The notes under the pieces were generated by a model. The model was not told the origin of the DNA, did no database searches, and saw nothing but the letters and a program-made list of their open reading frames with translations. A DNA stretch of 32,000 bases. Origin: an uncultured Erysipelotrichaceae bacterium. GTDB taxonomy: Bacteria > Bacillota_I > Bacilli_A > Erysipelotrichales > Erysipelotrichaceae. The stretch spans positions 1,290,001 to 1,322,000 of the forward strand of contig OW818668.1 in NCBI GenBank assembly GCA_942493105.1. Reading direction: 5' to 3'. Within the stretch, counting starts at the first letter, position 1. Every line of letters starts with the position of its first letter. Position numbers and translations under genes: made by a program. Shown here piece after piece: positions 14,279-25,487 of the stretch.

Positions 14279-15802
14279 ATGAAAGCCTTCTTTAAGAAGA
14301 TCACTTCAAAAGCCTATGTCATCAGTATGTTGGTCTTATTCCAACTCTTTTTGGTTTATTTACTAATGTATTCATTATCAAGTTTGGTTCCTCTACTGTA
14401 TTTCTTTGTGGCTGGATCAGGGATCATCTTATCGATCTTCATCATCAACACAAAAATGAATCCTTCTTATAAACTATCTTGGATCTTTTTGATTTTGACT
14501 GTACCTTTGATTGGAGTCACGACATATTTGTTGTTTGGAGGAAGAAAAGTCCCTAAAGACTTAAGAACAGGCATCAATCAACTCTCTTTAAACAAACAAC
14601 CTTTATTGCTTCAAGATAAAGAACCCATGCAATCCTTATATGAAGTATGTCCCCGTTCATTCAAGATTTCAAACTACATTTTTAAGACAACCGAATTTCC
14701 TGTCACCCATGATTCTAAAGTAACTTATTATCCAACCGGTGAAAGTAAATATAAGGCTTTGATGGAAGCTTTGAGAAGTGCCCAGCGATTTATCTTCTTA
14801 GAATATTTTATTGTGGTTGAAGGCTTTATGCTGAGTTCAATCAAGAAACTCTTGATCGAAAAAGCCAAAGCAGGCGTTGAAATCAAAATCATCTTTGATG
14901 ATTTCGGAGCTTTAAAGTTACCAAAATCTTTTAGAACAGAAATGAAAGAAGCGGGGATATCCTTGTATTTCTTTAATCCGATCAGACCTATTTTAGCCAT
15001 CTATATGAACAATCGCGATCATAGAAAAATCGCAGTCATTGATGGAAAGATCGGGTTTATCGGAGGCATCAATATTGCGGATGAATACATCAATAAAATT
15101 GAAAGATTTGGTCATTGGAAAGACACAGCCATCAAAGTAGAAGGCAATGCGGTCTTTTCACTTACCATTATGTTTCTGCAATTTTATCGCCATCTAAGTA
15201 AGGAAGACATCCATTTCTTAGATTATAAAGTTGATAATCCAGAATATCTGGATGAAGGCTTTATCCAGATGTTTTCTGATTCCCCAACAGATGAAGAATT
15301 GGTTTCTGAAAATGCCCATCTGAGTCTTATCAATGAGGCTGAACATTATCTTTATATCATGACTCCTTATTTGGTCATCAGTCATGCGATGATGACAGCT
15401 TTGACCTTATCCGCTAAAAGCGGGGTCGATGTAAGGATCTTGGTGCCGCATATTCCGGATAAATGGTATGTTCATCAGGTCACACGTTCTAACTATGAAG
15501 AACTGACCAAAGCCGGAGTGAAAATCTATGAATATAGCCCTGGTTTTGTCCATGGGAAAGTCATGCTTGTGGATGATGTCATGGCGATCGTTGGGACCAG
15601 TAATCTAGATTTTAGAAGTTATTATATGCACTTTGAATGTGGGGCTTTGATTACTTACTCAAAGTCCTTGATGGCTATGAAAAAAGATTTCTTAGATACC
15701 CTGGAAGTTTCTCAAGAAGTCACCTATGCCTCAACTTTAAATGTTAATCCATGGGTTAGAATGGGCAGAATGTTACTGAATGTTTTCAGTAGTGTCTTAT
15801 AA
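14279..15802 (+). CDS. cls: cardiolipin synthase (PLD superfamily, two HKD motifs)
   Basis: Two N-terminal TM helices. HKD-1 is DHRKIAVIDGKIGFIGGINIADEY and HKD-2 is VHGKVMLVDDVMAIVGTSNLDFRS. The start lies 2 nt after the PHP gene stop. Confidence 0.9.
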   Translation: MKAFFKKITSKAYVISMLVLFQLFLVYLLMYSLSSLVPLLYFFVAGSGIILSIFIINTKMNPSYKLSWIFLILTVPLIGVTTYLLFGGRKVPKDLRTGINQLSLNKQPLLLQDKEPMQSLYEVCPRSFKISNYIFKTTEFPVTHDSKVTYYPTGESKYKALMEALRSAQRFIFLEYFIVVEGFMLSSIKKLLIEKAKAGVEIKIIFDDFGALKLPKSFRTEMKEAGISLYFFNPIRPILAIYMNNRDHRKIAVIDGKIGFIGGINIADEYINKIERFGHWKDTAIKVEGNAVFSLTIMFLQFYRHLSKEDIHFLDYKVDNPEYLDEGFIQMFSDSPTDEELVSENAHLSLINEAEHYLYIMTPYLVISHAMMTALTLSAKSGVDVRILVPHIPDKWYVHQVTRSNYEELTKAGVKIYEYSPGFVHGKVMLVDDVMAIVGTSNLDFRSYYMHFECGALITYSKSLMAMKKDFLDTLEVSQEVTYASTLNVNPWVRMGRMLLNVFSSVL

Positions 15803-15812
15803 GGAGGACCGT

Positions 15813-16664
15813 ATGAAAAAGGCGTTGGTTTTAGAAGGCGGAGGCTTGCGTGGAGCCTATACAGCAGGTGTTTGTGCATGGCTGATTGAAAACAAGATCG
15901 AATTCGATCTTCATTGCGGCATCTCATCAGGAGCCTTGTTTGCGATCTGTACAGGACTAAAAGACATCCAGATGCTTCATGATTGCGCAACGACTTATTC
16001 CGTTTCTAAACGCAATGTAGGCTTACAGCCTTTCTTATTGGAAGGACAACCAGTAGGCTATGATTATCTGTTCAATGATGTCTTGCCTAAGAAAGTTAAC
16101 TTGATTCCTTCACGTATCCAAACCATCAAACCTCTGGTTGAATTTGGAGTGTATGATTTAAAAAATGAAGATGTCTTATGGAAAAATCAAACTGATTTAA
16201 AAGAAGATCTCAAATGGTTAAAAGCAGCTTGTGTGCTTCCCATCGCTGGACGTAATGTCAAGATCGGCAAGCAGTATTATATGGATGCGGGAGTCAGAAC
16301 GATGATCCCACTGGATCAAACCTTGACTCATGATGTCGATAAATTAATGATCATTACCACCAAACCAGATACTTTTGTACGTAAAGACAATGCGCCTTTA
16401 ACTCAATTCCTTCTGGATGTTCTTTATTTCAAACACAAAAAATTACTCAAAGAATTCAGAGATCGCAAAACAGTGTATTATCGTGAAATGGCGCAAGTCA
16501 AAGATTTGGTCACACAAGGCAAAGCCATTCATATGCGTCCTACAAAAGATTCTGGAGCCAAACGTTTCTCAGCGACCTATGAACAGGTCAATGATCTCTT
16601 TGAGATGGGAAAAGCAGACTGCGAATCCCGTAAAACAGAAATATTTGATTTTTTCAAAGCTTAA
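15813..16664 (+). CDS. patatin-like phospholipase
   Basis: LEGGGLRGAYTAG (oxyanion GGxR), GISSGA (G-x-S-x-G nucleophile) and MDAGV (catalytic Asp). AGGAGG SD directly after the cls stop, so the track start at 15780 is rejected. Confidence 0.85.
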   Translation: MKKALVLEGGGLRGAYTAGVCAWLIENKIEFDLHCGISSGALFAICTGLKDIQMLHDCATTYSVSKRNVGLQPFLLEGQPVGYDYLFNDVLPKKVNLIPSRIQTIKPLVEFGVYDLKNEDVLWKNQTDLKEDLKWLKAACVLPIAGRNVKIGKQYYMDAGVRTMIPLDQTLTHDVDKLMIITTKPDTFVRKDNAPLTQFLLDVLYFKHKKLLKEFRDRKTVYYREMAQVKDLVTQGKAIHMRPTKDSGAKRFSATYEQVNDLFEMGKADCESRKTEIFDFFKA

Positions 16665-17145: not shown

Positions 17146-18402
17146 GTGACTAAAACCAAAGATGTCTTTGATTATTTAAAATCAGCTGATAAGGAAGATA
17201 TCTATACTTCACTGATTCATTATGCTTTTAATGAAAGTGAAACTTTTAGAAGACGATTTTGTCTGTTTTTTGGGGCTCAAGATGATCCACAAGCGAAGTT
17301 ATTGGTGAGACATCCTTTTTATAATCAAAGTAAAATCGCCAAACGTAAAATAAACAAAGATGAAAAAGTCAGTGAAGATCATCAGTCCCATCAGCGTCAG
17401 ATCCCTGATTTGACTTTGGTAACTCAAGATAAGATCTGCATCATAGAATCTAAGCTCTTTTCTCAAGAAGGTTCTTATCAAACCGAAAGATATGGAGATC
17501 ACAGTTTTCTAGAATCCATTAAGAAAGACAAGAAACTTATTTCTTTAAAATTGGATGATGTGAAATTAAATGCGCATCGCTGTCCATCAAAAATCGATCA
17601 ATGTTTATTTTATATGACCATCAACGGGGATCGTGCAGTCAACACAGCCTTTATGAGCATCACTTGGAGTGAACTCATTGAAGAAGTGTTTGTTGAGTTG
17701 GAGGATTTCAATGAGACTTTAAGAATCATTTTGATTCAGATGAAAGAACGTTTTAGTTCGTATCCGATAATGAGACAAGAAATCATAGACACAAAAAACA
17801 ATCAAAGCCTGGATGCCTTTTTACGTCACAGCAGCAAGCATTTCTTACTTGAGAAGGATTATCTCTTGTTTGCCTATTTCAATCAGCTTGAGCCTATTGG
17901 AGCCCTTATGCAAGATCGTGAAGAACTACAAATTGAATTTGTGACAGTACTGGGAAATCGTCAATTGATCATCACATGTAAAGACTGGGAAAGTCCATCC
18001 ATCCAGGAAACATTATTAAATTTTCCTCTAGGAACATCGGTTGATGAAGTGCTACAACAAATGAAGGATGTGCCTTATCCTTTCTCAAAGCTCATCATCA
18101 AAGTCATCAACAATAAAAAAATATCTGTATGTATCAACTATGAACCTAATCCTTATCTTTCTGATTTAAAATTACTTAAAAGATATGGTATAAAAATCAA
18201 AGAACGGTTGAAGCAAGGCAAAGTTCAGTTTGAACAGGCTTTATTAAGGTGTAACATCACTCCTTCATCAACATTGCTTCAAGTCGCTAAAACAGAATTC
18301 TCAAAGAAGGAACATGATTTGGTTGAAAAGGTGACAGATCAAATCAAACAGTATTGCCTAACCATCGATGAACTGATCAAAAAGGAGATCCCTCATGAAT
18401 AG
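17146..18402 (+). CDS. PD-(D/E)xK nuclease superfamily protein (PDDEXK_4/PF14281-like N-terminal domain) with uncharacterised C-terminal half
   Basis: Ordered motif: N-terminal helix KEDIYTSLIHYAF (E17), IPDLTLV (D88), ICIIESKLF (E101-x-K103), then QTERY (112-116). This is the same order as the ..rID-ilie..iiIEnK....q.nQl.rY core I recall for PF14281. GTG start with a weak SD. Confidence 0.6.
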   Translation: MTKTKDVFDYLKSADKEDIYTSLIHYAFNESETFRRRFCLFFGAQDDPQAKLLVRHPFYNQSKIAKRKINKDEKVSEDHQSHQRQIPDLTLVTQDKICIIESKLFSQEGSYQTERYGDHSFLESIKKDKKLISLKLDDVKLNAHRCPSKIDQCLFYMTINGDRAVNTAFMSITWSELIEEVFVELEDFNETLRIILIQMKERFSSYPIMRQEIIDTKNNQSLDAFLRHSSKHFLLEKDYLLFAYFNQLEPIGALMQDREELQIEFVTVLGNRQLIITCKDWESPSIQETLLNFPLGTSVDEVLQQMKDVPYPFSKLIIKVINNKKISVCINYEPNPYLSDLKLLKRYGIKIKERLKQGKVQFEQALLRCNITPSSTLLQVAKTEFSKKEHDLVEKVTDQIKQYCLTIDELIKKEIPHE

Positions 18403-18592
18403 AGTGCCACTAAAAGATGAACATCATAAAATCATAGGGTATGTGGAAACCAAACCCAATGGTCAACAAACATTATCGGATGATCATTATCGTATCTTGG
18501 GCTATTATGATCCTAAGACCAATTACACCACCGATGATCATCACAAAGTCATAGGACATGGGAATATTTTGACCAGTTTGATCCATAAATAA
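18395..18592 (+). CDS. 65-aa His-rich miniprotein with three tandem D-[DE]-H-[HY]-[KR]-[IV]-[IL]-G-[YH] repeats
   Basis: Strong SD AAAGGAGA (18381-18388) 6 nt before the ATG. The ATG overlaps the upstream gene end by 8 nt. Repeats: DEHHKIIGY (aa 8-16), DDHYRILGY (29-37), DDHHKVIGH (47-55). The same periodicity is visible in the DNA (gatgaacatcataaaatcatagggtat / gatgatcattatcgtatcttgggctat / gatgatcatcacaaagtcataggacat). Confidence 0.6.
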   Translation: MNRVPLKDEHHKIIGYVETKPNGQQTLSDDHYRILGYYDPKTNYTTDDHHKVIGHGNILTSLIHK

Positions 18593-18809
18593 GGGTTTTA
18601 TAGGTGATGCATGTTAAAAATGATGGATTTGTTTTGTGATGAAAAACCCATTTTTAACATACTGTAAATAAAACTAAAAAAGGCATAAGAATACACTCAT
18701 CGAGTGTGGTAAAAGCATTAAAAATAGTGTATTGTAGAAATAACTGAAATAAGTATTGACTTAATATCTAGCTTTATTTTTTTGTAGATTTAAAACAATG
18801 GGGAACATC

Positions 18810-21800
18810 ATGAAAAGAAATCACACTGCCTTCTTAAAGCTCATCATCAGTATGCTTTTTATGTTGACGGTATTGGAGCCAGTCAAAGCATTGGAGACAG
18901 GTTTTGGCTCAGATCAAGTCAGACTTCATCTGGCGGTTGATGACTTCACTGCTTTTGCATCATGTGACATCAATGACCCGATCTTAAGTCAAGACGAGGT
19001 ATTGGGGACCGTAAGTCTATTGGTCAATGAAAGTTTAATTGAACAGAAAATTAGCACCTATAGAGCTTGTGATGGGGTATTGGCAGTGTATCAAGATCAT
19101 TTCGCAGCTTTAGATCTTATTCCTACCGATCCCAACTATGCGACCTATCAATTCAATCTAAAAAAGATTGGGCTTGAAGAAGCATGGAACATTACGAAAG
19201 GCAGTACTTCTATCATTGTGGCTGTTGTCGATAGCGGAGTCGATCCTGAAACAACCATCACTGATTTTTCTACAGGGACCATTTTAAAAGGGGTATCCAT
19301 TCTAACCAATGAGACTACCTTCATTCAATCTATAAAAGCAGATACATATGTAGGTCAGTACTCATACGATGGAGGCAGTCATGGGACAGCTGTGGCCTCT
19401 GTGATCGCAGCAGGGATGAACAGTAAAACCATTACAGGCGTGGCCCCTAATGTACGCATTTTGCCTATCAAAGTCTTTAGAGATGAAAAAACGCTCAATG
19501 AAGAAGTACCAGCATTTACAGTAGATGTCAGTAAAGGCATTGTTTGGGCTGTTGATCATGGTGCAGATATCATCAATTTAAGTTTGGGAACCTATGATTG
19601 GGATTATTCTTTGGCTCAAGCCATCCAATATGCAGAATCCAACAATGTACTTGTGGTTGCGGCTTCTGGTAATAATGCAGATCACAATGGTTTATATGGT
19701 AGTCCAAATAATGGGTATATCAGTTACCCAGCTGTATGGGATGAAGTTATAAGTGTTGGTTCCATCACAAAAGATGATAAAGTATCCAATTTCTCAAGCA
19801 CAGGTAATGATGGCTTAGAGTTGGTTGCCTATGGTGATGGGATATGGCTTCCATGGAGCAGTGAAAATAAATATAAAGCAGTCAGCGGAACATCATTTTC
19901 AGCTCCAACCGTTTCAGGCGTCTTGGCTTTGATTTTAAGTGCTTACCCTAACCTGACACCTTTACAAGCCAGAGGAGCTTTGATTTCTGGAGTGACAGAC
20001 ATCAACAATTCCAGCGATACTTCATTGGGTTATGATTCTCACACTGGATATGGCGTCGTCAATGCCGCAAAAGCCCTAGAATTTGCATCAAAAGTTGCCA
20101 CTCTATCGGATCACGATGATGTCTATGAAAATAGCACCATTGTAGAGTTATTGGACGAGGTACAAGGTAATTTGCAGGTCGTTGGCGATCGTGATATGTA
20201 TTGTATAGAAACCGTATTGGCGGCATCGCTTCGTTTTCAAGTAGATGTTGATCAAAGTTATAATATCTCGACCAATCTTAGTAGAAGAAATCCTGATGGG
20301 TCTATGTATCTTTACAGCGATAATGCAACACCGTTTGTTGAAATTGGTGGGGCAAATCCTGGAATCTATTGCGCCATGGTTTATGACCTCAATGGGCGTA
20401 CGACCTCGACAGGCAGACCATATAAAGTCCGATTCACTGCAAGTCCTATTTTTACGATCCCTTCGATTTTGGCCAATACATCGGCAGGAGAACTTTTCAA
20501 TAATGAAATAAGTTTCTATCCTGTTCAGATTACGATTCGTAATTCATATAAAGCAGTGACTAGTGTTACCAAAGATGGCGTTGGAATTGCGATGCCAGAA
20601 AATAAAATCTTTAATGATGAAGGAAAGTATGTCGTTACCGTTGATGATACAAAAAATGATCCAGTTACTTTCAGTTTTGAGATCAAAACCGGATTAATCC
20701 TTAATGGTTTTATCAATGGCCGACTTTATAATAAGCCAATCACCGTCACTTACACGGCTGATTCTGCCACGCTTGATGGCCAACCCTTTGCTTCTGGATC
20801 AACTGTTTCAACAGATGGAACACATGAATTGACCTTTAAGATCGGTGAAAGAACTTATCAAGCCAACTTTAGAATCGATAGGACACCACCCATCATCACA
20901 GGCATGTCCTCTTACTATGTGCTATATGAGTCACAGCCCATCACTTATAATGAGGGGATCGGGTTGATGGATGGGGTTTTCTTTGCCAGTGGCGGTACAG
21001 TAACCACTCAAGGCTATCATTCCTTAAAAGTCACGGATGAAGCGGGAAACTCGACATCTCAAACCATTTTGGTTATTGATGAATTGAATACGCCTTCGGT
21101 TATATCTAAACCAAAATTCGATTCCATTGACTTACAAGTGGATAATCATACTTCATGGACACAATTCTACCGCATTTATCAAGTAGATCCAGTGACTCAT
21201 GAGAAACAATTCATAGTAGATTCTACGAATGCTTATTATGAAATCAAAGACTTAACAGACTTTAATGCGCTGTTGACTTATGAAGTATCTGGTTGTCGTA
21301 CGGTTGATACAGTAACCTTATGTTCAGAGTCAACTTTGATCACAACAAAAACGATGTTGGAAGCAGTTTATGCTGCACCTTCCCGAATCAGTCACAAGTC
21401 TTTCCTTTTCTCTTGGGTAGGAAATAACAATGCGACAGGATATGATATCTTTGTCAATGGGATCTACTTTGATTCTACGACCGAGTTTACATATTTATTA
21501 GAATTATCTGACCCAGAGTCAGAAAACACCTCTTGGAAAGTCGATATTTTGGCAACAAGAATGGATGATGGGGAGAAAATCCTAGGCTCAATAAATCCTG
21601 CTAATACGCAAACATTATGGGTCAGTGTTCCAAGAGTGACCAACATCACGGCACAAATGCTTGAAACCGGTGAGTATAAAATTGATTGGGATCCAGTTCC
21701 GTATGCCACTTCTTATCGGATCACCTTTAAGATCACTGAATCTGGTTATAGTGGATATTCTGGCGACTATGTCACCAACGAACCGACGATCACCGTAAGT

Positions 21801-24800
21801 GGCTTGATGGGTATGACATCCTATAACATTTATGTGTATGCTCGAACGATTTTAATCAATGGGAACCAAATATCAAGTGAGTCCATGATTAAAGGTATAC
21901 GGACCAATCCTTCTAAACCCTTACTAAGTGGATCTTCTACTGGCGCTGATTCAGTAACTTTAACTTGGCCAAGAGCAACATCTGATTTAGGCTATTATAT
22001 ATATGAATATAATAAAAATACAAAAGCATATGATTTGATCCTTGATACTGCGCAAAACACCGCAACCTTTACTGGAAAAACCGTTGGTGAAATCTCAACT
22101 TATAAAGTGAAAGCATATTCAGAATACAATACAGTCAGATTCATCAGTGCTTTCTCAAATGAAGTAGCCTTATCTCCAATGCCGGTTTCAGTCAATGGGT
22201 TCTCTGTGACAACGATCGGTGCTGATCGGATCAGTTTAAACTGGACTGCTCAATCGGGAATCACTGGATATGAAATATTTAAATCGACTACCTTGACTGG
22301 AACTTATACATTAGCACTGGATATAAATTCAGGTCACACTGCGACCATCACCGGTTTGGCTTTTAATGCCAATACCTATTTTAAGATCAGACCTTATCTG
22401 CAAACCAGCTCCACACGTATTTATGGACCATTAACTTCTGCTATTACAGCAAAAACAGCTTTAGAAAACATCGCTAACTTTAAAGCAAGTTCTTCTGCCT
22501 ATAATTCAAATCTGATCACATGGTCGCCAGTTTCTTTGGCTAGTGGTTATGAATTGTGGACATCGACTGGAACCAGTACGACTTATGTCTTGTTGAAGAC
22601 CCAAACTACGACATCATTTACTCACACAACACTCATCACCAATACCCGATACAACTATAAAGTTCGTGCCTATCGCTTGGTTGGAACGATCAAAGTATAT
22701 GGTGCTTATACAAGCGTGTTATCAAGTGTGCCTTTACCAAGTGCCCCTCAAGCAACGGTTGCTTCAGCGGGATACAATGCATTGAAAGTATCTTGGCCAG
22801 TAGTTGTGGGAGCCAATGGATATGAAGTTTCTTATGCATCCATAGAAAACGGAACTTATACAAAACTAGCATTATTGACAACTAACTCTGTGACCATTTC
22901 TAACCTATTGACCAATACCTCTTATTTTGTGAAAGTCAGAGCTTATAGAACGATCAACACCGTAAAGATATACGGTGATGTGTCCTTAGTCGTCTCAGGA
23001 AAGCCAATCCCAAGTACCCCAGTATTGTCCTCTGTTTCACTCGATTATGACAGTGTAAAACTATCATGGACAGCAGTTTTAGGGGCAACAGGCTATGAAT
23101 TGTATCGCCGCAATACCGTATCAGGAAATTATGAACTCATCTTGGATACAACTCTGTTGACGTTTAATGATGACGGTTTAGTCACTGGAGCAGATAGTCT
23201 CTATAAAGTAAAAGCTTATCGATTAGTAGGAGAAGCCAGAATCTATGGTATAGAATCCAGTGTTACAACCATCAAAGCTTTACCATCTTTAGTGATCGGA
23301 TTAAAAACTTTAAATCCAAAATATACAGAACTTAGTTTGTCTTGGAATGCTGTTGCTGGAGCTACTGGTTATGAAATCTCAAGATCGACATCATCGACAG
23401 GGACTTACGTTTCACTTGGAACTGTTGAAGGGAAATTAAGCTTTATCAACACAGGCTTAAGTTTCAATGCGACTTATTACTACAAGGTTCGTCCTTATAC
23501 CACAGTCAATAGTGTGAAAGTCTATGGATCTTGGTCTGCCTATGTTTTAGGAAAAACAGCTTTAGAAACTGTCGTTGGACAAACGGCTGTGTATACTTCA
23601 TACAATTCAAATAAAATCAGTTGGAGTGCTGTCAATGGGGCTTCAGGTTATCAGGTGTATCGTTCGATTAAGACCAGTACGACCTATTCTTTAATCGCGA
23701 CAGTGACTTCAACCAGTTATACCAACACCAGTCTTTATACCAATACTCGATACAATTATAAGATCAGAGCGTATCGTTTGATTGGGACAACTAAGATTTA
23801 TGGACTTTACAGTGCAATTGTTTCTGCGACTCCATTACCTTGGAATCCAACAATTACTGTTGCTTCTTCTGGTTATAATTCGCTTAAAGTATCTTGGCCT
23901 GTTGTGGCAGGAGCCAATGGCTACGAAGTATCCTATGCCACTACAGAAACCGGGACTTATACCAAAATACCATTGGTAACCACCAACAGTGCGACCATTC
24001 CAAACTTATTAACCAATACTTCTTACTACGTTAAAGTCAGAGCTTATAGAACCGTCAGCTATGTCAAGATCTATGGAGCATATTCACTTGTTGTATCAGG
24101 CAAAGCAATCCCAAGTACACCGGTCATGACTTTGATCTCTAATGGTTATGACAGTGTTAAAATCACTTGGCCGGCTGTTTTAGGGGCTACAGGCTATGAA
24201 TTGTATAGAATCAATCCAAGTACACGCAGCTTTGAATTATGCACTGATACGGCTTTATTGACCTATACGCAAACAGGTTTGGTCAGTGGTCAAATCTCTG
24301 AATACATGATCAAAGCTTACCGTTTGATTGGATCAACTAAAGTTTACAGTGTTGATTCATCTGTCAAATCAGTAACACCGATCCCATCTTTGGTCAGTGG
24401 CTTTAAACTGGCCATGCCTTCAGTCACATCTTTGAAGTTAGCTTGGACACCGGTGTTGGGCGCAACAGGTTATGAGATCACTAAAGCTACTTCATCCACC
24501 GGAACCTATAGTTTAATGAAAACTGTTGAAGGATCAAGCGAATTCACAGTGACTGGCTTAACATTCAACACAACGACCTACTACAAGATCCGTGCTTACA
24601 CGACTGTGAATACAACCAAAGTCTATGGTCCAACAAGTTCTGCGATCAGTGCCAAGACCATTCCTAGTACGGTTGTTTTATCAGTCGTCAATACTTCCTA
24701 TTTATCTCATACCTTATCATGGCCTGCCATAGAAGGGGCTTCTGGTTATGAAATCTACAGATCTACAGGAACCAGTACATATTACACCTTGCTTAAAACA

Positions 24801-25487
24801 CAAAGTACCACTTCTTTCCTAAATACTGCATTGGCTTTCAACACCCAATATAACTACAAAGTCAGAGCATATAAATTGGTTGGGACAACCAAAATATATG
24901 GATCCTACTCCAGTATCGTCAGTAAAAAAACCTTGGTCAGTGATCCTTCAGCCATCTTTAGTATGACCCATGATTCAATCACTGTTTCTTGGGCTGCAGT
25001 CATCGGTGCTTCAGGCTATGAGATCTCCATCGCCACATCACTCAATGGAACCTATACTATTTCCACACAAACCACCTTATCAAAAACATACACAGGTTTA
25101 AGTACAGGCACGGCTTACTTTATTAAACTGCGTGCTTATCGATTGGTTTCAACCACCAAAGTCTATAACCTTACGCCAGTGATCATCACGATCACCCCAA
25201 GTTTAAGTGTTCCTGTGATTCAATTGAGCGGCTTGAGCGCGACTTCTGCGACTTTGAGTTGGCTAAGTGTCAGTGGGGCAACAGACTATGAAGTTCGAAT
25301 CAAAAGCGATGCGCCAGATTCAGAGTGGATCGTTGAAAGTGTCAGTGCACTCAGCGCTACCTTTGATGATTTGGATATGAATGCGCATTATACGGCCGAA
25401 GTACGAGCCATAAAAAAAGTCAATGAAGTTTCAATCCCGTCTGCGTATTCAGAACCGATTACCTTCTCTTATTCAGAAACCAGTTAA
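18810..25487 (+). CDS. giant secreted S8 (subtilisin-family) serine peptidase with PPC-like domain, 3 Ig-like modules and 16 FN3 domains
   Basis: Signal peptide MKRNHTAFLKLIISMLFMLTVLEPVKA. Catalytic triad motifs VAVVDSGVD (D145), HGTAVAS (H195), SGTSFSAP (S366), numbered on the track ORF. PPC-like segment about aa 440-550, Ig-like modules about aa 567-761, FN3 array aa 765-2229 (W..v.gA.GYe.yr...Y.vrAy pattern). GGGGAA SD favours ATG 18810 over 18798. Confidence 0.9.
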   Translation: MKRNHTAFLKLIISMLFMLTVLEPVKALETGFGSDQVRLHLAVDDFTAFASCDINDPILSQDEVLGTVSLLVNESLIEQKISTYRACDGVLAVYQDHFAALDLIPTDPNYATYQFNLKKIGLEEAWNITKGSTSIIVAVVDSGVDPETTITDFSTGTILKGVSILTNETTFIQSIKADTYVGQYSYDGGSHGTAVASVIAAGMNSKTITGVAPNVRILPIKVFRDEKTLNEEVPAFTVDVSKGIVWAVDHGADIINLSLGTYDWDYSLAQAIQYAESNNVLVVAASGNNADHNGLYGSPNNGYISYPAVWDEVISVGSITKDDKVSNFSSTGNDGLELVAYGDGIWLPWSSENKYKAVSGTSFSAPTVSGVLALILSAYPNLTPLQARGALISGVTDINNSSDTSLGYDSHTGYGVVNAAKALEFASKVATLSDHDDVYENSTIVELLDEVQGNLQVVGDRDMYCIETVLAASLRFQVDVDQSYNISTNLSRRNPDGSMYLYSDNATPFVEIGGANPGIYCAMVYDLNGRTTSTGRPYKVRFTASPIFTIPSILANTSAGELFNNEISFYPVQITIRNSYKAVTSVTKDGVGIAMPENKIFNDEGKYVVTVDDTKNDPVTFSFEIKTGLILNGFINGRLYNKPITVTYTADSATLDGQPFASGSTVSTDGTHELTFKIGERTYQANFRIDRTPPIITGMSSYYVLYESQPITYNEGIGLMDGVFFASGGTVTTQGYHSLKVTDEAGNSTSQTILVIDELNTPSVISKPKFDSIDLQVDNHTSWTQFYRIYQVDPVTHEKQFIVDSTNAYYEIKDLTDFNALLTYEVSGCRTVDTVTLCSESTLITTKTMLEAVYAAPSRISHKSFLFSWVGNNNATGYDIFVNGIYFDSTTEFTYLLELSDPESENTSWKVDILATRMDDGEKILGSINPANTQTLWVSVPRVTNITAQMLETGEYKIDWDPVPYATSYRITFKITESGYSGYSGDYVTNEPTITVSGLMGMTSYNIYVYARTILINGNQISSESMIKGIRTNPSKPLLSGSSTGADSVTLTWPRATSDLGYYIYEYNKNTKAYDLILDTAQNTATFTGKTVGEISTYKVKAYSEYNTVRFISAFSNEVALSPMPVSVNGFSVTTIGADRISLNWTAQSGITGYEIFKSTTLTGTYTLALDINSGHTATITGLAFNANTYFKIRPYLQTSSTRIYGPLTSAITAKTALENIANFKASSSAYNSNLITWSPVSLASGYELWTSTGTSTTYVLLKTQTTTSFTHTTLITNTRYNYKVRAYRLVGTIKVYGAYTSVLSSVPLPSAPQATVASAGYNALKVSWPVVVGANGYEVSYASIENGTYTKLALLTTNSVTISNLLTNTSYFVKVRAYRTINTVKIYGDVSLVVSGKPIPSTPVLSSVSLDYDSVKLSWTAVLGATGYELYRRNTVSGNYELILDTTLLTFNDDGLVTGADSLYKVKAYRLVGEARIYGIESSVTTIKALPSLVIGLKTLNPKYTELSLSWNAVAGATGYEISRSTSSTGTYVSLGTVEGKLSFINTGLSFNATYYYKVRPYTTVNSVKVYGSWSAYVLGKTALETVVGQTAVYTSYNSNKISWSAVNGASGYQVYRSIKTSTTYSLIATVTSTSYTNTSLYTNTRYNYKIRAYRLIGTTKIYGLYSAIVSATPLPWNPTITVASSGYNSLKVSWPVVAGANGYEVSYATTETGTYTKIPLVTTNSATIPNLLTNTSYYVKVRAYRTVSYVKIYGAYSLVVSGKAIPSTPVMTLISNGYDSVKITWPAVLGATGYELYRINPSTRSFELCTDTALLTYTQTGLVSGQISEYMIKAYRLIGSTKVYSVDSSVKSVTPIPSLVSGFKLAMPSVTSLKLAWTPVLGATGYEITKATSSTGTYSLMKTVEGSSEFTVTGLTFNTTTYYKIRAYTTVNTTKVYGPTSSAISAKTIPSTVVLSVVNTSYLSHTLSWPAIEGASGYEIYRSTGTSTYYTLLKTQSTTSFLNTALAFNTQYNYKVRAYKLVGTTKIYGSYSSIVSKKTLVSDPSAIFSMTHDSITVSWAAVIGASGYEISIATSLNGTYTISTQTTLSKTYTGLSTGTAYFIKLRAYRLVSTTKVYNLTPVIITITPSLSVPVIQLSGLSATSATLSWLSVSGATDYEVRIKSDAPDSEWIVESVSALSATFDDLDMNAHYTAEVRAIKKVNEVSIPSAYSEPITFSYSETS
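22179..25199 (+). repeat. intragenic higher-order tandem repeat: four-FN3-domain unit (about 1101 nt / 367 aa) present 2.75 times
   Basis: Domain types recur in the order D-A-B-C. D starts at aa 1128, 1495 and 1862 (nt 22179, 23280, 24381). For example, aaaacagctttagaaaac at about 22451 matches aaaacagctttagaaact at about 23555, and gtatcttggccagtagttgtgggagccaatggatatgaagt at about 22789 matches gtatcttggcctgttgtggcaggagccaatggctacgaagt at about 23888. Confidence 0.85.

Follow-up and report, generated by a model that had tools for sequence, protein, structure and literature searches.

A coupled 65-residue miniprotein beside the gene of a divergent, predicted PDDEXK_4-type nuclease: a candidate accessory cassette in one clade of Erysipelotrichaceae

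When a gene for a predicted nuclease ends inside the start of a gene for a very small protein, are the two products partners in one task, or are they neighbours by descent only? This question is raised by a 32,000-nt stretch of DNA from an uncultured Erysipelotrichaceae bacterium (GenBank assembly GCA_942493105.1, contig OW818668.1), hereafter called the window, in which a 418-amino acid (aa) nuclease-like protein is followed by a 65-aa miniprotein; coordinates refer to the + strand of the window unless another locus (L001 and so on) is named. The answer that we favour, to which we assign a probability of roughly 0.45, is that the two genes belong to a clade-specific accessory cassette, in which a probable nuclease acting on foreign DNA would have acquired a new small subunit as its partner. 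As a new and divergent member, the nuclease belongs to a known, uncharacterised family; the coupled miniprotein makes the locus a new variation on that theme and not a categorically new system.

The gene pair and the family of its nuclease

An earlier, sequence-only reading of the window had described both open reading frames (ORFs), their overlap and a Shine-Dalgarno (SD) sequence of the miniprotein gene buried in the nuclease coding sequence, and all of these are present where it placed them (Table 1). The pair is more than a chance arrangement, because a word-indexed search of 5.8 billion proteins returned 19 clusters of nuclease homologues (53-100% identical, none of them annotated), because the miniprotein remains 72-88% identical from lineage to lineage (the nuclease reaches 53-63%, core neighbours 65-85%), with nucleotide differences averaging 11/6/30 over the three codon positions, and because the SD is conserved. 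Judged from these substitutions, purifying selection on the miniprotein is strong and its gene is real. All eight lineages compared keep the AAGGAG sequence at an identical spacing, with overlapping and with separate genes alike; five of them (the window, L001, L004, L005 and L033) retain the 8-nt overlap, and a gap of 8-11 nt takes its place in L003, L012 and L024. The nuclease gene itself starts with GTG and no obvious SD in the window, and ATG stands at the homologous codon in the seven relatives compared. A promoter and terminator scan found fewer promoter-like sites than in shuffled controls and no clear terminator after the miniprotein gene, and the GC content of the cassette lies only 2-4 points under that of its flanks; these data define neither a transcription unit nor a foreign origin.

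Table 1. Positions of the genes, domains, residues and signals discussed in the text
Feature	Position	Strand	Remarks
DUF5655 gene, 133 aa	16727..17128	+	Pfam PF18899, E = 9e-15; upstream cassette member
418-aa nuclease-like ORF	17146..18402	+	GTG at 17146, TAG 18400-18402; PDDEXK_4 / PDC-S26-like two-domain predicted nuclease
Predicted PD-(D/E)xK domain, about aa 1-185	17146..17700	+	(near-)invariant columns in alignments A1 and A4; weak direct PF14281 match
Codons E17; D88; E101 of that domain	17194-17196; 17407-17409; 17446-17448	+	
Codons K103; Q112; Y116 of that domain	17452-17454; 17479-17481; 17491-17493	+	
Long beta-hairpin insertion, aa 57-85	17314..17400	+	gap in all distant relatives in A4; predicted strands 57-69 and 74-85
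C-terminal alpha/beta domain, about aa 255-411	17908..18378	+	family-wide motif Y-E-P-N-P-Y at 18139-18156; outside Pfam families
SD of the miniprotein, AAGGAG	18382..18387	+	within the nuclease coding sequence, 7 nt 5' of the ATG
Overlap of nuclease stop and miniprotein start	18395..18402	+	8 nt, ATGAATAG
65-aa miniprotein ORF	18395..18592	+	ATG at 18395, TAA 18590-18592; triple beta-hairpin repeat
Miniprotein repeats, 12-residue units KDEHHKIIGYVE, SDDHYRILGYYD, TDDHHKVIGHGN	18413-18448, 18476-18511, 18530-18565	+	alignments A2, A7
Short hydrophobic C-terminal helix of the miniprotein	18566-18580	+	predicted helix 58-61 within ILTSLI
Phage miniprotein	L034:4995-5213		UViG_3300031998_000063
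Phage miniprotein	L036:4001-4216		UViG_3300029305_005443
Phage miniprotein	L039:3956-4162		UViG_3300045988_143477

The assignment of the N-terminal domain to the PD-(D/E)xK enzymes of Pfam family PF14281 (PDDEXK_4), proposed in the same reading, holds through the family and not through the window protein alone, which reaches only 13 bits (E = 0.1, aa 6-137) against a gathering score of 22.3 bits. When the close family was scanned member by member, 8 of its 18 proteins matched PDDEXK_4 at E<=1 (best 4.8e-4). An exhaustive HMMER profile search of 1.84 billion representatives yielded 100 proteins at E<=1e-3, mostly of 370-400 aa and several aligned end to end; relatives recovered by the nuclease family profile had E values from 7e-31 to 1e-10, and eight of ten distant relatives pass the PF14281 gathering score. 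The comparison of the close family with the distant relatives by hhalign gave a probability of 100% (E = 2e-47) over 355 columns and the full length. By homology, then, the 418-aa protein is a divergent full-length member of a family of about 380-400 aa with a PDDEXK_4 N-terminal domain, the function of which is listed as "Unknown" by Steczkiewicz et al. 2012 (PMC3424549). It shares with PF14281 the motif order E...PD...ExK...Q..Y and differs from it in its sub-threshold score, in two clade-specific insertions and in a C-terminal region of 230 aa beyond the Pfam model.

The loss of the catalytic residues among homologues had been named as an observation that would speak against a nuclease; these residues are instead conserved. 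The motif set E17, P87-D88, E101-x-K103, Q112-T-E-R115-Y116 lies where it had been located and is invariant or nearly so in the 18 members of the close family (alignment A1) and in the wider family (A4, the joint alignment with the distant relatives): P87, E101, K103, Q112 and Y116 are invariant in both alignments and D88 nearly so, and the invariant set of A4 comprises R55, P87, E101, K103, F105, E108, G109, Q112, Y116 and Y337. The proposed catalytic residues are thus intact in the 418-aa protein, as far as an alignment can tell. An AlphaFold2 (AF2) model of this protein (mean local confidence, pLDDT, 87; template-modelling confidence, pTM, 0.83) places D88 just before strand 89-92 and E101-x-K103 at the end of strand 96-102. 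Sequence searches of the PDB with profiles of A1, A4, A2 and DUF5655 returned nothing meaningful, and the PHROGs collection gave no match for any cassette protein. An identity as ISH3 transposase (NCBIfam) was dropped as noise (17.5 bits against a cut-off of 225), and the weak Pfam matches of single members (NERD, DpnII, R1_ABCA1 and others) were set aside as noise or as generic PD-(D/E)xK similarity.

The C-terminal half had matched nothing recognised in the sequence-only reading, an impression that has to be abandoned: it belongs to the same full-length family and is not an orphan, because it is conserved across that family even though no Pfam model describes it. It is covered by the hhalign alignment, in A4 its residue Y337 never varies and W281 and P336 hardly do, and the motif IHYE(T/P)NPY is common to close and distant members. 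The clade with the miniprotein is set apart by two stretches inserted into its nuclease (aa 57-85 and about 141-152), which in A4 are confined to this clade. The aa 57-85 hairpin, the second insertion or both may offer a docking site for the miniprotein; this is speculation, drawn from a single evolutionary event.

A further claim of the sequence-only reading, that the pair fits no described system, does not stand for the nuclease, which is a divergent relative of the candidate PDC-S26 of PADLOC. The models of this candidate are matched by nine of the ten distant relatives (E = 1e-6 to 6e-12, some nearly full length), in two of which (P0026 and P0035) they reach into the C-terminal domain, and weakly by 10 of the 18 close members (best 2.2e-5). 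The PDC systems are 145 candidates identified by "guilt-by-embedding" in BREX, DISARM and type I restriction-modification (R-M) loci (Payne et al. 2024, bioRxiv 10.1101/2024.01.29.577857), and part of the supplementary material of that study names neither PDC-S26 nor PF14281. The likeness extends to the size of about 400 aa, to a PD-(D/E)xK core with a C-terminal extension and to genomic setting, as relatives of the window protein lie in or beside type I R-M loci, the defining setting of PDC systems. PDC-S26 is, however, a single-gene candidate, whereas the window nuclease has a coupled 65-aa partner and a co-inherited DUF5655 gene, and no defence system surrounds the window copy; a place inside a known defence locus (L007) or next to one (L015) is seen only in distant relatives.

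One of these distant relatives (P0049, in L007) lies inside a type I R-M locus, between hsdM and hsdS/hsdR, and another (L015) directly 3' of hsdR; a third (L019) adjoins genes for a reverse transcriptase and a DUF2779 protein, and a fourth (L018) a DUF4238 gene. Such an embedded position points to the logic of a back-up or second line of defence, which Payne et al. discuss. It recalls defence genes embedded in type I R-M loci, such as PrrC in EcoprrI, in that distant members sit between hsd genes; the analogy is one of context only, since there is no sequence relationship to PrrC and the window copy has no R-M neighbours. The miniprotein gene was not found beside the distant nuclease relatives. 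In a Gastranaerophilaceae metagenome-assembled genome (MAG) a distant member is broken into ORFs of 215 and 192 aa (L020:5974-7215) and is probably a frameshifted pseudogene; the near-identical neighbourhood in a Eubacterium MAG (L019) carries an intact 411-aa copy beside the reverse transcriptase gene. Searches by tblastn with the window nuclease and one distant relative against plasmid records, and with the window nuclease against phage genomes, gave no match, nor did a scan of viral contigs with the family pattern.

The cassette and its chromosomal site

In the close family the gene order is Grx-GNAT-PHP-Cls-Patatin-DUF5655-(DUF6144)-nuclease-miniprotein-...-PsiU(-)-MTase(-), where PsiU is a pseudouridine synthase. 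In each of the 11 close-family contexts whose downstream sequence can be read, the miniprotein gene directly follows the nuclease gene (complete pairs in the window, L001/L002, L003, L004, L005, L012, L024 and L033; partial ones at contig ends in L006, L013 and L022), and the longest contigs of 11 members of the miniprotein cluster are equal in length to those of nuclease family members. The DUF5655 gene accompanies the nuclease gene at all close-family loci, at a distance of 17 nt in the window and with 4-nt overlaps in L003, L004, L005 and L012. A patatin-anchored metagenome search led to a sister lineage (patatin 55-59% identical) in which Cls-Patatin and PsiU-MTase are kept, often abutting, and in which DUF5655, nuclease and miniprotein are all absent from the same patatin/PsiU junction. 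Weak tblastn matches of the miniprotein in these sister-lineage loci (E about 2) are spurious, their positions lying inside the expected downstream gltX gene. The absence of all three genes from the sister lineage implies that they are present or absent as one block. The earlier description of a two-gene unit is therefore right as regards the adjacent pair and too narrow as regards presence and absence, where the unit also takes in the upstream DUF5655 gene.

The junction receives other genes as well. In one sub-lineage AbiEi/AbiEii (a type IV toxin-antitoxin and abortive-infection system) lies between the patatin gene and DUF5655 (L012:4101-5524, L024:6019-7436), which indicates that the site accepts defence cargo; an 887-aa adhE-like aldehyde/alcohol dehydrogenase in the same junction of one sister-lineage genome (L027:8032-10695) makes it a general insertion hotspot and not specifically a defence island. 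In the window, a subtilisin-like (S8) surface protease of 2229 aa that has numerous Fn3-like repeats (18798-25487; GC about 0.40-0.43, against about 0.35 for the cassette) stands between the miniprotein and the pseudouridine synthase genes. This neighbour, which the sequence-only reading had emphasised, is incidental and a later insertion, because the closest relative, L033, does not have it at the junction; it is not found there in L001 or L003 either. In L004 the gene next after the pair encodes 1277 aa.

Between DUF5655 and the nuclease gene, three loci carry a 321-aa gene with a weak C-terminal DUF6144 match (L001:7063-8028, L004:7033-7998, L005:6881-7849). It overlaps both neighbours by at least 4 nt in L004 and L005, forming a four-gene coupled chain, and only the nuclease gene in L001; the window, L003, L012 and L033 lack it. 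On the other side of DUF5655, the patatin ORF of the window (15780-16664, 294 aa) overlaps cls by 23 nt; as its orthologues have 277-283 aa and start with MKKALVLEGGG, the true start is probably an internal ATG about 11 codons downstream.

How the cassette is inherited bears on whether it has a defence role at all. It occupies one fixed site, with vertical inheritance, in all sampled members of the clade, across about 20-25% core protein divergence, and in the window family scans found no known defence genes or mobile-element genes flanking it. Together with a GC content only slightly below that of the surroundings, this would suit a cellular role other than defence, such as DNA repair or recombination, nucleic-acid turnover or competence, fixed in the clade and with the miniprotein as an accessory factor. 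We consider such a role rather unlikely, given that the cassette is missing from the same junction in the sister lineage and so is not core, that the nuclease and DUF5655 change more rapidly than core neighbours do, that distant relatives of the nuclease lie in or beside R-M and other defence genes, and that the hotspot also receives AbiE.

The miniprotein and its relatives in phages

The triple repeat attributed to the miniprotein by the sequence-only reading is real (Table 1). The AF2 model (pLDDT 85) has six strands forming three hairpins, with uniformly short loops, and the helix at residues 58-61. The family has no Pfam entry or annotation. Family scans matched it to no helix-turn-helix (HTH), ribbon-helix-helix (RHH), other DNA-binding or antitoxin family, and a Pfam scan at E<=1 found no MORN_2 match. 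A Foldseek search of the model against the PDB returned only non-significant repeat-like matches (Rhs, OspA, LolA and TULP1), the Tubby protein TULP1 standing at rank 19 with E = 1.3.

The nearest lead concerns the beta-flower proteins (Pfam PF21784-6, in clan CL0395, to which Tubby's C-terminal domain also belongs; Durairaj et al. 2023, PMC10584680), for which the same paper mentions "half-flower" matches, C-terminal hydrophobic helices and relatives annotated as "MORN repeat variant". The miniprotein scores 16.1 bits (E = 0.01) against Bflower_2 (PF21785), below the gathering score of 38 bits; six of nine miniprotein members match this family at E<=1 (best 0.0029), and none of the phage homologues does. 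In both, beta-hairpin "petals" recur and a hydrophobic helix stands at the C-terminus. The closed barrel of the beta-flowers, however, has four to six hairpin petals (8-12 strands), and with only three hairpins (six strands) in the AF2 monomer a single miniprotein could not close an 8-12-stranded barrel. On these sequence and model comparisons, the similarity is a lead and not membership.

Homologues of 68-72 aa, 41-43% identical to the miniprotein, are encoded by three large IMG/VR viral contigs (70, 135 and 144 kb). They have the same layout of three repeats and a helix; L62 is invariant, phage copies included. The description of the miniprotein as His-rich applies to part of the family: His is conserved in the bacterial branch and not in the phage homologues, where Phe, Tyr or Gly stands at most of these positions. 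An abundance of His is thus a trait of the bacterial branch and not of the family, and metal binding by His-rich loops was dropped as a family-defining feature. In all three contigs the miniprotein gene lies just 5' of an nrdH-like gene and nrdD; further downstream, L034 and L036 also have nrdG-like ORFs, and near the miniprotein gene no nuclease gene resembling PDDEXK_4 was found. In L034 the miniprotein gene overlaps an upstream 124-aa ORF of no recognised kind by 8 nt. A tblastn search of the GenBank phage collection with the phage miniprotein gave no match.

These phage genes delimit the association. Co-occurrence of the two genes, as supposed in the sequence-only reading, is found in every close-family context and does not extend further, since the distant nucleases lack the miniprotein and the phage miniproteins lack the nuclease; the partnership is thus lineage-specific and not a general two-component system. 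It is possible to go further and to regard the bacterial pair as neighbours by descent only, with a miniprotein that would serve an independent function, for instance in nucleotide or redox metabolism, and would not act on the nuclease. Three phage contigs that carry the miniprotein upstream of nrdH-nrdD and lack the nuclease point this way, all bacterial co-occurrences may stem from one ancestral event in one syntenic block, and the genes do not overlap in three lineages. We nevertheless hold this to be unlikely: the phage contigs are related to one another, so that the nrd synteny counts as a single observation, and in the bacteria the pair is immediately adjacent in all eight complete lineages while its neighbours gain and lose genes (DUF6144, AbiE, protease). 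The SD embedded in the nuclease coding sequence, the 8-nt overlap kept in five lineages and the coincidence of the clade-specific nuclease insertions with the presence of the miniprotein also argue against independence.

The proposed partnership and its possible role

A toxin-antitoxin (TA) or addiction module, in which the miniprotein would neutralise the nuclease as toxin and loss of the labile miniprotein would kill or arrest the cell, possibly as abortive infection, would suit adjacent, translationally coupled genes that strictly co-occur in the clade, and the phage homologues could then be antitoxin mimics, which are known for other systems, but we judge it very unlikely, because the nuclease homologues stand alone and so have no intrinsic need of an antidote, because the would-be toxin has 418 aa and the miniprotein lacks the DNA-binding or antitoxin domain of a type II TA system and is more conserved than the nuclease (about level with core genes), and because the locus keeps a fixed syntenic site in all clade members, vertically inherited and not patchy or mobile, a stable inheritance that fits such a module poorly, with no nuclease copies found on plasmids or phages. 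Small beta-hairpin-repeat proteins of the YwqK type (MORN-variant immunity or antitoxin proteins) neutralise an adjacent nucleic-acid-targeting toxin; the miniprotein differs from them in lacking a MORN_2 match, and its partner is a 418-aa cytoplasmic predicted nuclease and not a secreted polymorphic toxin.

We therefore return to the reading of the locus as an accessory cassette of one Erysipelotrichaceae clade, in which DUF5655, nuclease and miniprotein, with DUF6144 added in some lineages, would form a unit at the patatin/pseudouridine synthase junction. In this reading the 418-aa protein would be a Mg2+-dependent nuclease acting on foreign DNA, and the nuclease of this clade would have gained a 65-aa partner of three beta-hairpins and a short helix, translated from its own conserved SD and usually coupled through the 8-nt overlap. 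The miniprotein would serve the nuclease as a subunit in stoichiometric partnership, as its regulator or inhibitor, or possibly as a sensor, and may dock on the clade-specific aa 57-85 hairpin. The homology, the intact catalytic residues, the co-occurrence, the purifying selection and the variable presence of the cassette from lineage to lineage are observations; nuclease activity, physical interaction and a role in defence are what we infer.

Several points weigh against this reading. The window nuclease lies below the PF14281 threshold and matches no PADLOC model at E<=1, and PDC-S26 is itself a candidate put forward through guilt-by-embedding. Foldseek searches of PDB and BFVD with the whole-chain 418-aa model gave no significant PD-(D/E)xK match, the best BFVD match being Gp314 of Bacillus phage G (E = 6e-3; TM 0.18 normalised by query, 0.33 by target). 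The sole exception at D88, an Ala (codon GCT) in the nuclease P0015 of L003 (L003:8001-9242), stands beside an intact miniprotein gene, and this nuclease may be catalytically dead. Vertical inheritance at a fixed site is unusually stable for a defence gene, the flanks of the cassette in the window hold no known defence genes, and the phage homologues without a nuclease indicate that the miniprotein can act independently. Finally, the downstream, coupled position of its gene would not obviously yield the excess expected of an antitoxin-type inhibitor.

A bolder version of the same idea, which we regard as a long shot, is that in the miniprotein we would see a regulatory subunit of a new kind, able to check or arm a PDC-S26-like defence nuclease, and that the phage copies beside nrd genes would be mimics that neutralise the nuclease, as anti-defence, or trigger it. 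The locus would then record a host-phage arms race centred on a miniprotein whose fold has had no name so far and may be a dimeric "half beta-flower".

What the locus means for the biology of these bacteria depends on whether the two proteins work together. If the genes are independent, it holds an ordinary divergent nuclease of a known family beside an orphan small gene. The miniprotein family spans bacterial chromosomes and large phages, and a definition of its fold and ligand would put a name to a new family of small proteins and might expose a trigger or counter-defence of phages. Should the two proteins act jointly, the pair would show how a stand-alone candidate defence nuclease (PDC-S26 / PDDEXK_4) acquires a dedicated small partner, and it would provide a tractable two-gene system for the control of this nuclease family.

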